A stretch of DNA of 64,000 nt from Escherichia coli. Its GTDB lineage: Bacteria; Pseudomonadota; Gammaproteobacteria; Enterobacterales; Enterobacteriaceae. How positions within the stretch are numbered: the first letter of the stretch is position 1; every line of letters starts with the position of its first letter. The notes under the pieces were generated by a model that ran no database searches, was not told the DNA's origin, and saw only the letters and a program-made list of their open reading frames with translations. This document shows positions 1 through 56,538 of this stretch, piece after piece. The stretch lies in the NCBI RefSeq assembly GCF_003018255.1, contig NZ_CP027440.1. One strand, written 5' to 3'. The position numbers and the translations under genes were made by a program.

Positions 1-402
1 TGGCGACATCCATGCATGGGGGTTAGGTTTGCCCTCATAGGGGCCTTCGGTGATCCCTACTGGCGTCACACCCGAAGAGACAATTACTTCTGGAACCCCA
101 TTGAGATGCTGGTAAAAGCGTTGGAACCACAATTCCAGATTCATACCATTGGCGAGGATCAGTTGTGCCCCCTGCGCACGTTTAATATCGCCAGGGGTAG
201 GCTGATACTCATGAATTTCTGCACCGGGCTTGGTTATGGATGAGACTTCTGCAGCATCTCCAGCCACGTTTTTGGCCATATCCGCGATGATGGTAAATGT
301 TGTAATGACCTTGAATTTTTCAGTTGCACTTGCCTGAAATGCGATCGAGCAGGTGAGGGCGAGGCACCCCAAGAGCATGGTTACTTTTTTTATTGAGTGC
401 AT
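1..402 (-). CDS. sitA: Periplasmic metal-binding protein of a Mn/Fe ABC transporter, N-terminal 134 codons; the gene runs off the left edge of the window
   Basis: Hand translation of the minus strand from ATG at 400-402: MHSIKKVTMLLGCLALTCSIAFQASATEKFKVITTFTIIADMAKNVAGDAAEVSSITKPGAEIHEYQPTPGDIKRAQG..., a signal peptide followed by sequence resembling SitA/ZnuA-family binding proteins as I remember them. Open to position 1. Confidence 0.7.
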   Translation of the reverse strand, partial: MHSIKKVTMLLGCLALTCSIAFQASATEKFKVITTFTIIADMAKNVAGDAAEVSSITKPGAEIHEYQPTPGDIKRAQGAQLILANGMNLELWFQRFYQHLNGVPEVIVSSGVTPVGITEGPYEGKPNPHAWMSP

Positions 403-434
403 AATTTAGTACCTATAGTGAGCAAAATTAGAAC

Positions 435-456
435 AAACATAGCAACGGCTATGTTT
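435..456. promoter_or_regulatory. Candidate MntR box: perfect inverted repeat AAACATAGC-AACG-GCTATGTTT, 33-54 bp upstream of the sitA start
   Basis: Palindrome read directly; it matches the E. coli MntR operator consensus as I recall it (AAACATAGCnnnnGCTATGTTT). Confidence 0.6.
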
Positions 457-477
457 TATAGCACAACCTATACAAAA

Positions 478-497
478 TGAAAATGATTATCATTAAC
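478..497. promoter_or_regulatory. Candidate Fur box (TGAAAATGATTATCATTAAC)
   Basis: Core AATGATTATCATT is one mismatch from the Fur consensus core AATGATAATCATT; lies in the sitA upstream region. Confidence 0.5.
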
Positions 498-953
498 AAC
501 TTTGTGGCCCAAAACAGGGATTAGGTTGTTTCCTGCTGGCGACATGGTATTGAGGAAAAAAGCAGGGCAGCTATTAGGCTTTGAAATGACTTTATGAGGA
601 AAATTTTTGATGGCAAAAATGGGGCAAAACGCTGTAGAAGGGGCAAAAAAGGGGCAAAAAAAGAGTGGATTATCGTAGCTTATTGTTGTCGCTGATAATG
701 TTTAACATATTGAAAAATAAATAAAATACTTATGAGTCAGATAGTTGTGATTTTTGCCCTTACTTGTTCAGGTTGTATTGTTCTTTCTTACTAATTTCTT
801 GATTTTGCGACATTTAAAAGCGACTCAATTCGTTATATGGCATCAGAAGAGTATGCGTCATGCCGGAACGCCCAGCATAAGAAATCTGATATAAAAACTG
901 TGGCGTGTATGGTACGGATTAGAGGGGAAAATGTCAGCACATTTGCGAAATGA

Positions 954-7656: not shown

Positions 7657-8646
7657 TTAAACCAGTTCGTTCGGGCAGGTTTCGCCTTTTTCCAGATTGC
7701 TTAAGTTTTGCAGCGTAGTCTGAGAAATACTGGTCAGCGCTTCTGCTGTCAGGAATGCCTGATGCCCGGTAAACAGCACGTTGTGGCAGGCAGACAGGCG
7801 ACGGAATACGTCATCCTGAATTACGTCGTTGGATTTATCTTCAAAGAACAGATCGCGTTCGTTCTCATACACGTCCATACCCAACGAACCAATTTTCTGA
7901 TTTTTCAGCGCTTCAATTGCTGCCTGAGAATCAATCAATGCACCGCGACTGGTATTGACGATCATCACGCCATTTTTCATCTGTTCGAAGGCAGCTTCGT
8001 TCAACAGATGATAGTTTTCCGGTGTCAGCGGGCAGTGCAGAGAGATAACGTCTGATTCAGAGAACAGGGTTGGCAGATCGACATACTCCACACCGAGTTC
8101 CAGCGCCGCCGCACTTGGATACGGATCGAACGCCAGCAGACGCATACCAAAACCTTTCAGAATGCGCAGCATCGCCACACCGATTTTGCCGGTACCGATA
8201 ACGCCTGCCGTTTTGCCATACATAGTAAAGCCGGTCAGACCTTCCAGAGAGAAGTTGGCGTCACGGGTACGCTGATACGCGCGGTGAATACGGCGGTTCA
8301 GCGTCATCATCATACCGATGGCGTGTTCAGCAACGGCTTCTGGATCATAGGCTGGAACACGGACTACTTTCAGCCCCAGTTCTTTTGCCGCGTCAAGGTC
8401 GACGTTATTGAAACCGGCACAGCGCAGGGCGATATATTTAACGCCGTGCTTTTTCAGCTCTTCCAGCACCGGGCGGCTGCCGTCATCGTTTACGAAAATA
8501 CATACCGCTTCGCAGCCATTGGCGGTTTTAGCGGTTTTTTCCGTCAGCAGAAAGTCAAAAAATTCCAGCTCAAAGCCAAAGGACTCGTTCACCTGTTGCA
8601 GGTACTTCTTGTCGTACTGTTTTGTGCTATAAACGGCGAGTTTCAT
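7657..8646 (-). CDS. ldhA: Fermentative D-lactate dehydrogenase, NAD-dependent (329 aa)
   Basis: MKLAVYSTKQYDKKYLQQVNE... with the GxGxxG NAD-binding motif (GVIGTGKIG). Confidence 0.92.
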   Translation of the reverse strand: MKLAVYSTKQYDKKYLQQVNESFGFELEFFDFLLTEKTAKTANGCEAVCIFVNDDGSRPVLEELKKHGVKYIALRCAGFNNVDLDAAKELGLKVVRVPAYDPEAVAEHAIGMMMTLNRRIHRAYQRTRDANFSLEGLTGFTMYGKTAGVIGTGKIGVAMLRILKGFGMRLLAFDPYPSAAALELGVEYVDLPTLFSESDVISLHCPLTPENYHLLNEAAFEQMKNGVMIVNTSRGALIDSQAAIEALKNQKIGSLGMDVYENERDLFFEDKSNDVIQDDVFRRLSACHNVLFTGHQAFLTAEALTSISQTTLQNLSNLEKGETCPNELV

Positions 8647-27876: not shown

Positions 27877-28878
27877 TCAGAGTTTAGCGAATTTTTCGAG
27901 GGTGCGAATGAGTTGTGTGACGAAGCCATATTCGTTATCGTACCAGGCGACCGTTTTCACCAGTTGTAAATCGCCCACGGCGGTAATTTCCGTTTGCGTG
28001 GCATCAAACACCGACCCGAAATGGCTGCCAATGATATCGGAAGAGACTATTTCTTCATCGGTATAACCAAATGACTCGTTATTGGTGGTTGCTTGTTTAA
28101 GTGCGTTATTCACCTCTTCGGCAGTCACTTTTTTTGCGAGAATGGACACCAGCTCAGTGACCGAACCTGTTTTCACCGGCACGCGTTGCGCATGACCTTT
28201 CAGTTTGCCGCTCAGTTCCGGGATCACCAGACCAATGGCTTTTGCCGCACCTGTAGTGTGGGGAATGATATTTTCTGCCGCTGCGCGTGAAGCTCGTAAA
28301 TCCTTCCCACGCGGACCATCCACCAGTGACTGGGTGCCGGTATAGGCATGAATGGTCGTCATCGTGCCGACTTCTATCCCGAAACTGTCATGCAAGGCTT
28401 TGGCCATCGGCGCAAGGCAGTTAGTGGTGCATGACGCCACGGAAACAATGGTGTCGTTGCCATCCAGAGTGTCGTCATTGACGTTATAAACGATAGTTTT
28501 CATTTCACCGGCAGGGGCGGAAATCAACACCTTCTTCGCACCAGCATCAAGGTGCGCCTGCGATTTCTCTGCGGAGGTATAAAAGCCAGTACATTCGACA
28601 ATGATTTCTGCGCCTTTCGCTTTCCATGGAATATTTTTAGCCTCTTTTTCGGCGTAAACCGCGATACTTTTTCCATCAACGATAAGTGAATCTTCCGTAA
28701 AATCAACGCTCCAGGGGAACGGTCCGTAGTTTGAATCATGTTTCAGCAGGTAGGCGAGAATTTTTGGGGAAGTGAGATCATTAATAGCGACAACGTCTAT
28801 GTTGCTTTTGACTTCAAGTAATCGACGCAACACCAGTCGACCGATACGACCAAAACCATTAATACCAACTTTACTCAT
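27877..28878 (-). CDS. gapC: Glyceraldehyde-3-phosphate dehydrogenase C, apparently intact (333 aa)
   Basis: [21 protein letters not shown]... with the catalytic SCTTNC motif; one uninterrupted 333-aa ORF. Confidence 0.88.
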
Positions 28879-40482: not shown

Positions 40483-40580
40483 AGCCCCTTTTTCGGCAGC
40501 CCCTTTTTCGGCATTGACTATGTCTTTTTCGGCATTGACTATGTCTTTTTCGGCATTGACTATGTCGTCTGAAAAGGGGC
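40483..40580. repeat. Structured tandem-repeat array: 2 x 15 bp (AGCCCCTTTTTCGGC) then 2.5 x 21 bp (ATTGACTATGTCTTTTTCGGC), closed by an inverted copy AAAAGGGGCT
   Basis: Repeats read and counted directly in the tehB-ydcL intergenic region. Confidence 0.85.
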
Positions 40581-40679: not shown

Positions 40680-41348
40680 ATGCGTACCACATCAATTGCG
40701 AAAGTTGCAGCTTTATGCGGCTTGTTGGCTCTGTCTGGTTGTGCCTCTAAAATCACCCAGCCAGATAAATATTCTGGTTTTTTAAACAATTACTCTGATT
40801 TAAAAGAAACAACCTCAGCAACAGGTAAACCTGTTTTACGTTGGGTAGACCCGAGTTTTGATCAAAGCAAATATGACAGCATCGTCTGGAACCCAGTCAC
40901 TTATTATCCGGTACCGAAACCATCTACCCAGGTAGGGCAGAAAGTTCTGGATAAAATTTTGAGTTATACCAACACCGAAATGAAAGAAGCGATTGCGCAG
41001 CGTAAACCACTGGTTACCACCGCTGGGCCGCGTAGTCTGATTTTCCGTGGGGCCATTACCGGTGTAGATACCAGCAAAGAAGGGCTGCAATTCTATGAAG
41101 TGGTTCCTGTTGCATTAGTGGTTGCGGGGACGCAAATGGCGACGGGCCACCGTACCATGGATACTCGCCTGTATTTTGAAGGTGAGCTGATTGATGCAGC
41201 GACTAATAAACCGGTTATCAAAGTCGTTCGTCAGGGCGAAGGTAAAGACCTGAATAACGAAAGTACGCCAATGGCTTTCGAAAATATTAAACAAGTTATT
41301 GATGACATGGCGACCGATGCCACCATGTTTGACGTTAACAAAAAGTAA
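40680..41348 (+). CDS. ydcL: Lipoprotein YdcL (222 aa)
   Basis: Lipobox LALSGCASK after a signal peptide. Confidence 0.85.
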   Translation: MRTTSIAKVAALCGLLALSGCASKITQPDKYSGFLNNYSDLKETTSATGKPVLRWVDPSFDQSKYDSIVWNPVTYYPVPKPSTQVGQKVLDKILSYTNTEMKEAIAQRKPLVTTAGPRSLIFRGAITGVDTSKEGLQFYEVVPVALVVAGTQMATGHRTMDTRLYFEGELIDAATNKPVIKVVRQGEGKDLNNESTPMAFENIKQVIDDMATDATMFDVNKK

Positions 41349-41382
41349 TACCAGTTGCGCCATCGTTAGATGGCGCTTTTTA

Positions 41383-42558
41383 TTATCGGTTTCTGTTAGC
41401 GATTAAATTCAACACCACGTAACAAACGCCTCCGGCAATTAATCCCCAGAACGCAGAACCAATCCCGACCAGCGTCAATCCACTTGCCGTTACCAGAAAT
41501 GCCACCACCGCCGCGTCGCGCTCACGCTCATTATGCAGCGCCTGATACAAACTGCCGCCAATGGTACTCAACAGCGCAAGACCTGCCAGCATCTGGATCC
41601 AACTTACGGGCAGGGCAGCCATCATCCCGGTAATGGCACTACCAAACAGACCTGCGATCAAATAAAAAATGCCGGCAACGGCAGCGGCCAGCCAACGTTG
41701 ATCTTTATCCGGATGCGCTTCCGGGCTTTGGCAAATAGCCGCGGTGATTGCCGCAATACCGACGGAATAAACGCCGAAAGGGGAAAAAAACAGTGCCAGC
41801 AATCCAGTAAACACAATTAATGGCGAAACAGGAGCCGAATATCCAGCTGCTTTCATTGCTGCGATACCCGGTGCGTTTTGCGATGCCATCGTCACCAGAA
41901 AAAGGGGGAGTGCAACGCTCAGGCTGTGAGCAAACGAAAAATCAGGGCTAATATAAGTGGGGAGAACGGGTTTAAAGACAACATCAGTTGTGACAACGTC
42001 ACCTTGCGCGATAACGATCACGACCCCAATAATCATCGCGGCAATTACCGCATAGCGCGGTGCAACGGCCTTGGTTGCCAGCCATACCAGCAACATACTG
42101 CCACACAACGTAAATTGATCATCCAGACTGGCAAACGCCTGTAAACCAAAGCGTAATAAAATCCCGGCAAGCATTGCCGCCGCAAGCGAGTGCGGAATAA
42201 TGCGCATCAGACGAGCAAAGAGTCCCGTTATGCCGCAGAGGACTATTAACGCGTTGGTGACAATAAAAACGCCGATGGCTTCGTTAAGTGTTAGTCCCTG
42301 TAATCCGGTGACCAACAAAGCCGCGCCAGGCGTTGACCATGCGGTGAGAACAGGTACGCGATACCATAATGTCAGAGCCAGCGTACTGACGCCCATTGCC
42401 AGCCCCAGCGCCGTCATCCAGCCAGAGATTTGTGCAGTGGTGGCTCCGGCGACAATCGCTGCTTGCCAGATTATTGCCGCTGAACTGGCGTAGCCAATTA
42501 ATACCGCCAGAAACCCCGCCAGTAGCGTGGGTGGAGGAATAGAAAACAGACGCATGGT
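41383..42558 (-). CDS. ydcO: BenE-family inner membrane transporter (391 aa)
   Basis: From internal Met: MRLFSIPPPTLLAGFLAVLIGYASSAAII..., polytopic. Confidence 0.85.
   Translation of the reverse strand, partial: TMRLFSIPPPTLLAGFLAVLIGYASSAAIIWQAAIVAGATTAQISGWMTALGLAMGVSTLALTLWYRVPVLTAWSTPGAALLVTGLQGLTLNEAIGVFIVTNALIVLCGITGLFARLMRIIPHSLAAAMLAGILLRFGLQAFASLDDQFTLCGSMLLVWLATKAVAPRYAVIAAMIIGVVIVIAQGDVVTTDVVFKPVLPTYISPDFSFAHSLSVALPLFLVTMASQNAPGIAAMKAAGYSAPVSPLIVFTGLLALFFSPFGVYSVGIAAITAAICQSPEAHPDKDQRWLAAAVAGIFYLIAGLFGSAITGMMAALPVSWIQMLAGLALLSTIGGSLYQALHNERERDAAVVAFLVTASGLTLVGIGSAFWGLIAGGVCYVVLNLIANRNR

Positions 42559-55397: not shown

Positions 55398-56538
<1,141 letters not shown>

Follow-up and report, generated by a model that had tools for sequence, protein, structure and literature searches.

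The ydcL-ydcO junction and its terminator

The window, by which we mean the whole 64,000-nucleotide stretch of Escherichia coli chromosomal DNA analysed here, contains the convergent genes ydcL and ydcO on either side of a gap of 34 bp (table 1). The lipoprotein gene ydcL is intact, and the transporter gene ydcO, the start of which was assigned by comparison with homologous PGAP and K-12 gene models, terminates on the minus strand in a TAA codon at 41383-41385. The last base of ydcL and the first position of this stop codon agree with the spacing of 34 bp reported in the initial annotation of this DNA. In K-12 the insertion sequence IS609 is found at the same place, and the locus in the window is an unoccupied target of this known IS200/IS605-family element, the biology of which is already known.

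Table 1. Positions of the principal features in the window
Feature	Position	Strand	Basis or remark
Left-end region	1-763	-	5' part of sitA at 1-402, with upstream sequence to 603; 604-763, right end of prophage Rac match
feaR-to-paaX deletion junction	12389-12391		17.7-kb deletion; 3-bp overlap, without IS remnant
paaY-pdxI junction	13113-13127		K-12 ynbG and ydbA (with IS2D and IS30C), 8.9 kb, absent; 13 unaligned bases at 13114-13126
ydcL, DUF3313 lipoprotein gene, intact	40680-41348	+	Open reading frame; Pfam DUF3313, E=5.7e-63; 97.9% identity to K-12 ydcL
ydcL-ydcO gap, 34 bp, unoccupied IS609 site	41349-41382		Annotated with equal length in CFT073, 042, and Sakai
Predicted intrinsic terminator of ydcL	41357-41386	+	Stem-loop at 41357-41376, then tail TTTTTATTAT
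TTAT target tetranucleotide	41380-41383	+	K-12 IS609 lies directly 3' of TTAT, between 41383 and 41384
ydcO, BenE-family transporter gene, 390 codons	41383-42555	-	Pfam BenE, E=2e-161; PGAP gene of 1173 bp in JNE23-011

The gap contains a predicted hairpin. A terminator scan returned a single site, with a stem GCGCCATC-GTTA-GATGGCGC of eight pairs (six of them G-C) closed by the 4-nt loop GTTA, and a fold energy of -17.2 kcal/mol (z = -3.7 relative to shuffled sequences). On the plus strand the GC-rich stem is followed directly by a run of T residues, as in Rho-independent terminators. Hairpins following the ydcL stop codon in other taxa carry paired changes that keep the stem, GCGCCGTC with GACGGCGC in E. 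albertii and GCGCCACC with GGTGGCGC in Enterobacter, and these changes, read by eye in a small sample, are compensatory. We read the 34-bp gap as a probable Rho-independent terminator of ydcL, in which the last four bases of the T-tail would form the IS609 target.

Two further observations concern the neighborhood of this terminator. E. albertii NBRC 107761 retains the hairpin but has no ydcO homologue next to it, similarity to the window resuming in sutR/rlhA, and ydcO appears to have been lost or replaced in that species. On the other side of ydcL, the tehB-ydcL intergenic region in which its promoter region lies (40483-40566) contains two perfect tandem arrays, one with a 15-bp unit repeated 2.1 times and one with a 21-bp unit repeated 3.0 times, and is 57 bp longer (15 + 42) than its K-12 counterpart.

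The TTAT target overlaps the ydcO stop codon, and the insertion point of IS609 falls within that codon. Across the junction the window reads ...GGCGCTTTTTAT/TATCGGTTTCTG... (the slash marking the insertion point), TTAT being followed by TATCGGTTTCTGT... of ydcO. Neither the left-end nor the right-end hairpin of IS609, nor any tnpA or tnpB sequence, was found at the site, and searches of the window with IS609 by blastn and tblastx gave no match.

The IS609 insertion in K-12 and the ancestry of the empty site

In K-12 MG1655 (NC_000913.3), IS609 occupies 1748 bp (1503161-1504908) between ydcL and ydcO and contains two divergent genes, the tnpB gene insQ and yncK, a pseudogene of tnpA interrupted by an in-frame stop. 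The initial annotation was right to place an insQ element here in K-12 and mistaken in calling insQ a transposase gene; its product has HTH_OrfB_IS605, OrfB_IS605, and Cas12f1-like TNB domains (Pfam) and is a homologue of TnpB-type RNA-guided nucleases. The junction was compared with that of K-12, as the initial annotation had proposed, and this defined the insertion point to the base. Of the blastn alignment blocks, the fourth ends at window position 41383 (K-12 1503160) and the fifth begins at 41384 (K-12 1504909), which are exactly the annotated ends of IS609, and in the window the two blocks abut at 41383/41384 with no element DNA between them.

The left junction in K-12 reads ...GGCGCTTTTTAT/CCGGTGCGCC... 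and the right junction ...GGAGGATGTCAA/TATCGGTTTCTG...; the left flank ends in ...CTTTTTAT and the element in ...GATGTCAA, followed by TATCGG. When IS609 was removed in silico, the K-12 sequence matched the empty site of O157:H7 Sakai at all 107 nt compared, with a length equal to that of the window, and the insertion therefore left neither a target duplication nor a scar. A 3-bp duplication of TAT was considered as an alternative boundary and rejected because the empty sites already contain TATTAT. The tetranucleotide immediately 5' of the insertion point is TTAT, which at the left end is, together with TCAA at the right end, the commonest cleavage motif in TnpB-bearing IS605 elements (PMC9956272). 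The exact IS609 target is thereby defined as the TTAT in the tail of the ydcL terminator, overlapping the ydcO stop codon.

A second by-product of the comparison concerns YdcO itself. The K-12 gene is one codon longer than that of the window (1176 vs. 1173 bp) because IS609 split the ydcO stop codon and the frame runs into the right end of the element, which partly supplies one added tyrosine codon and a TGA stop. The K-12 protein ends in ...NRNRY (K-12 1504899-1504914), and those of the window (41383-41388) and other empty-site strains end in ...NRNR. The C-terminus and stop codon of K-12 YdcO are thus products of the IS609 insertion.

Both alleles are common in E. coli. The empty junction was observed in 2138 complete genomes (about 40%) and the right end of IS609 joined to ydcO in 3265, which together account for 5403 of the approximately 5416 complete E. 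coli genomes with the locus. Among reference strains, the site is empty, each time with a 34-bp gap, in CFT073, 042, and O157:H7 Sakai, which we take to belong to phylogroups B2, D, and E, respectively. It is occupied in K-12 (presumably phylogroup A), strain C, NCM3722, and one O111:H8 strain (presumably B1).

The outgroups indicate which allele came first. Among eight species-representative loci retrieved with a degenerate pattern for the 3' end of ydcL, ydcO was observed directly after the hairpin in E. whittamii, Escherichia sp. E1V33, and two divergent records labelled E. coli (L007 and L009), and the ydcO genes of these four empty records are 85-93% identical to that of the window. Because these four outgroup lineages are empty, the ancestral state is the empty junction, and occupation arose later, in a lineage that includes K-12. 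The allele of the window, with its TAA stop and ...CCAGTT before the hairpin, is closer to the outgroup alleles than to the K-12/Sakai allele.

The closest relatives of the window are strains JNE23-011 and 21F61, avian O78:H4 strains, and 042. The ydcL-ydcO piece of JNE23-011 is 100% identical to that of the window and the two genomes are 99.77% identical over window positions 764-64000, with 109 mismatches and 4 gaps. Over positions 1-25000, 21F61 is the best match along the full length, at 99.4% identity. Identity of the window with JNE23-011 itself was rejected based on these mismatches and gaps and on the left end, which carries sitA in the window and ttcA in JNE23-011. The annotation of JNE23-011 was used as a guide only, and gene states were re-derived from the sequence of the window.

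We infer that IS609 inserted once, immediately 3' of TTAT, in an ancestor of the lineages that include K-12 (A) and O111:H8 (B1). The insertion, leaving no target duplication, would have split the ydcO stop codon and thereby supplied K-12 YdcO with its additional tyrosine and a TGA within the right end of the element. TTAT would have been the single-strand target of the element, with TnpA probably acting on it. The lineage of the window, which lies near D/F/G strains, would never have received the insertion. Based on the site anatomy, insertion point, allele frequencies, and outgroup states observed above, we consider 41349-41382 to be the native, never-interrupted ydcL-ydcO junction, with a probability of roughly 0.9.

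Use of the same target is also seen at a greater phylogenetic distance. Escherichia sp. MOD1-EC7003 (NZ_PTRE01000219.1), which is ~95% identical to the window, has a 46-bp IS609-like remnant at the equivalent TTAT (at ~8061-8106 of the oriented locus), in which the start of the left end is joined to the terminus of the right end via a CCTTCAG common to both end hairpins. A deletion behind this remnant has removed ydcO along with most of sutR. The scar implies that the site was hit, or that an occupied allele was transferred, outside the K-12 (A/B1) group; possible origins are a separate use of the site, an ancient insertion, and import of the allele. A strict single-insertion history of IS609 at this position is not proven.

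It is possible, though very unlikely, that the site was once occupied in the lineage of the window and subsequently restored by TnpA-mediated precise excision without a scar. Members of the IS200/IS605 family such as IS608 and ISDra2 do excise seamlessly, so that the sequence alone is compatible with past occupation. Furthermore, 5016 of 5426 E. coli genomes carry IS609 (median of two places, maximum of nine), at several loci and also on plasmids, which argues that active copies exist in the species, and the MOD1-EC7003 scar points to repeated or long-standing use of the site. These points are outweighed by the empty state of all four informative outgroups and of the B2, D, and E references, and by the flanking allele of the window, which is of the outgroup type and not of the K-12/Sakai type. 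Moreover, the K-12 copy, in which tnpA is a pseudogene, never moved in mutation-accumulation lines (PMC5009759).

Alternatively, homologous recombination with a donor whose site was empty might have brought in the empty allele in place of an occupied one. E. coli recombines often, and 5 of 107 flanking positions near the site differ from K-12. However, the site (~98% identity to K-12) is about as diverged as the genes elsewhere in the window (96-99% each), there is no sign of a local mosaic boundary, and the whole arrangement is present in JNE23-011 and 21F61 too, making such an import extremely unlikely; the native junction remains our preferred reading.

Insertion sequences and gene decay across the window

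The initial annotation had recognized neither an IS nor a transposase gene anywhere in the window, and five concordant checks (collinearity with K-12, megablast against plasmids, blastn/tblastx, PGAP, and Rfam) bear this out. It had named an ISfinder or BLAST search of the whole window as the check, with detection of an IS as the refutation, and the BLAST searches described below found no IS match. In blastn the window is collinear with K-12 1432000-1531000 in five blocks, with all bases from 604 to 64000 aligned, and the largest additional pieces relative to K-12 (45, 42, and 15 bp) are all tandem repeats, the 45 bp belonging to (GTAAC)n at 14607-14662. A megablast of window positions 900-64000 against 72,556 plasmids returned only 29, 26, and 7 records, none of them an IS; the matches are mislabelled chromosomes, chromosome-like fragments, or housekeeping homologues. 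Had a common enterobacterial IS been present, hundreds of plasmid records would be expected to match.

Seventeen IS sequences taken from K-12 and 042, which represent IS1, IS2, IS3, IS4, IS5, IS30, IS150, IS186, IS600, IS911, ISX, IS609, and IS1397, were compared with the window by tblastx and by blastn at a word size of 7, and none matched at E<=0.01. Applied to the K-12 interval as a positive control, the identical search detected IS2D, IS30C, and IS609. PGAP annotations of JNE23-011 and 21F61 list no transposase across the interval. Rfam, at the gathering threshold, identified no omega-RNA or IS-linked RNA in either the window or the K-12 IS609 locus, the only families found being MicC, RydC, and sok. 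All three IS copies of the K-12 interval (IS2D and IS30C in ydbA, and IS609) are absent from the window.

It is scarcely credible that these searches missed a strongly diverged or very short IS, or a piece of one, in the window. Megablast requires exact words of 28 bp, and the blastn/tblastx library comprised only 13 IS kinds (17 sequences), which leaves some room for a missed element. Against this, every base from 604 to 64000 is collinear with the curated K-12 sequence, with insertions of at most 45 bp that are tandem repeats, positions 1-603 are sitA and its upstream sequence, and PGAP annotated no transposase in near-identical genomes.

Positions 1-603 are the only window DNA without a collinear K-12 match. 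In 21F61, sitABCD, an iron/manganese transporter operon, adjoins lambdoid tail-fibre genes and is carried as cargo at the end of a lambdoid prophage in the Rac/ttcA site; JNE23-011, the nearest relative, lacks an island at this position and has an intact ttcA next to uspF. The first 763 bases of the window are thus mobile DNA, though not an IS.

The absence of IS copies from a stretch of this length is unremarkable. The 4.64-Mb K-12 genome contains 41 IS copies (PMC5009759), and at this density 0.57 copies are expected per 64 kb, with a Poisson probability of ~0.57 for none, so that a 64-kb stretch free of IS would be found in ~57% of cases, an ordinary outcome. E. coli 042 has an IS3-family element, IS1397, just after rlhA (12763-14001 of the retrieved locus), at a place homologous to approximately position 45300 of the window. 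The IS occupancy of this interval, like its scattered lesions, varies among ordinary E. coli.

The same holds for the inactivated genes. Of 60 K-12 genes compared, 54 are intact in the window, and four lesion events affect five: a deletion between feaR and paaX, a deletion in ydbD, a nonsense mutation in ynbD, and a frameshift in curA. By comparison, K-12 has four pseudogenes in the interval (ttcC, ydbA, gapC, and yncK), and CFT073 has seven in ~30 kb of it without an IS in that stretch. The density of pseudogenes in the window is therefore similar to that of K-12 and below that of CFT073, rather than well above that of commensal E. coli, and the window has no IS, where a Shigella-type genome would have several copies per 64 kb. 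The initial annotation had regarded the lack of IS beside pseudogene-like lesions as notable, IS expansion usually going with gene decay in Shigella-type lineages; this is not supported, since the empty site is ancestral and common, the lesions are few, and zero IS is an expected count.

Its statement that ydbA with its IS elements is missing was correct, K-12 1465063-1474004 being replaced by 13 bases at the paaY-pdxI junction. The nearby feaR-paaX deletion removes feaB, tynA, paaZ, and paaA-K and joins the 3' end of feaR to that of paaX (window 12181-12540); the annotations of JNE23-011 and 21F61 show the same truncated genes. In 1537 genomes a single place covers at least 80% of window positions 1-25000, and absence of the feaR-paaX cluster appears to be common to many E. 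coli.

The remaining gene states are of various kinds. In ydbD (14267-15617) an internal deletion of ~985 bp has alignment blocks that overlap by 16 bp at the junction (15156-15171), which suggests a repeat-mediated event, and the gene also contains a (GTAAC)11 microsatellite (14607-14662), 45 bp longer than in K-12. The premature stop in ynbD (19074-20366) is at codon 267 of 430 (~19872-19874) and is present in JNE23-011 and 21F61, where it is annotated as an internal stop. In curA (55500-56538) an extra A at 55707 produces a +1 frameshift relative to K-12, the first stop falling at codon 89; because curA is intact in JNE23-011, the frameshift is either specific to the strain of the window or a homopolymer sequencing error. 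The direction of decay is the opposite in gapC (27877-28878), an intact 1002-bp reading frame in the window, Sakai, JNE23-011, and 21F61 and a frameshifted pseudogene in K-12. pdxI is intact in the window and frameshifted in JNE23-011.

Comparison with known systems

Shigella-type reductive genomes have several hundred IS copies and many pseudogenes. The window resembles them in having a few inactivated genes (feaR/paaX, ydbD, ynbD, and curA) and differs in its complete lack of IS over 64 kb, its 54 intact genes of 60, and a number of lesions close to that of K-12 and below that of CFT073. It should not be taken for a piece of a Shigella-like genome in decay, and neither the lack of IS609 nor that of the ydbA IS elements calls for a special explanation. 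That IS609 is missing, as is every other IS over these 64 kb, reflects ordinary presence/absence polymorphism and does not mark the genome as unusual.

The closest known system is IS609 of K-12 itself, for which the window has the exact target in the last four bases of the ydcL terminator tail; it differs in that the element is absent and ydcO keeps its own TAA, one codon short of the K-12 gene. IS608 of Helicobacter pylori is the model of 'peel and paste' single-strand transposition, with a TTAC target and a TCAA right end. The ends of K-12 IS609 resemble those of IS608 in lying 3' of a tetranucleotide, in the TCAA right end, in the lack of a target duplication, and in the subterminal hairpins at both ends. 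The differences are the target (TTAC vs. TTAT) and the divergent orientation of tnpA and tnpB in IS609.

For IS608 and ISDra2 the single-stranded lagging-strand template is the preferred substrate. GC skew is positive on the plus strand in every 8-kb bin of the window, which places the plus strand, and hence TTAT, on the lagging-strand template. The TTAT of the ydcL terminator may thus be exposed as the kind of single-stranded substrate preferred by the IS200/IS605 family.

TnpB and its omega-RNA promote 'homing' at empty donor sites in ISDra2 and in Geobacillus IS605-family elements. The empty allele of the window has the corresponding layout, with TTAT as the transposon-adjacent motif and, directly after it, the sequence found beside the right end of IS609 in K-12, and the OrfB_IS605 and Cas12f1-like TNB domains of InsQ are those expected of a TnpB. 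However, K-12 IS609 has no match to an omega-RNA family in Rfam, and at position 14 of the guide region the window has one mismatch with K-12. Published experiments on InsQ were not found when the literature was searched for this protein in connection with TnpB. By analogy with these systems, the empty allele might be the cognate target of InsQ and an omega-RNA, with InsQ cutting it when the two alleles meet in conjugation or transduction and IS609 then being copied in, a scenario that we regard as unlikely.

In itself, the finding is of a strain outside the K-12 lineage that lacks a K-12 insertion, an ancestral and common state, and it matters little. If homing did occur, the coexistence of the two alleles would not be neutral, and homing would help to explain why ~60% of E. 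coli carry, at this site, a copy of IS609 that does not transpose in K-12, and would also explain the scar at the equivalent TTAT in a divergent Escherichia lineage. The locus provides two clean natural alleles, occupied and empty, which could be used to test targeting by the TnpB homologue InsQ.
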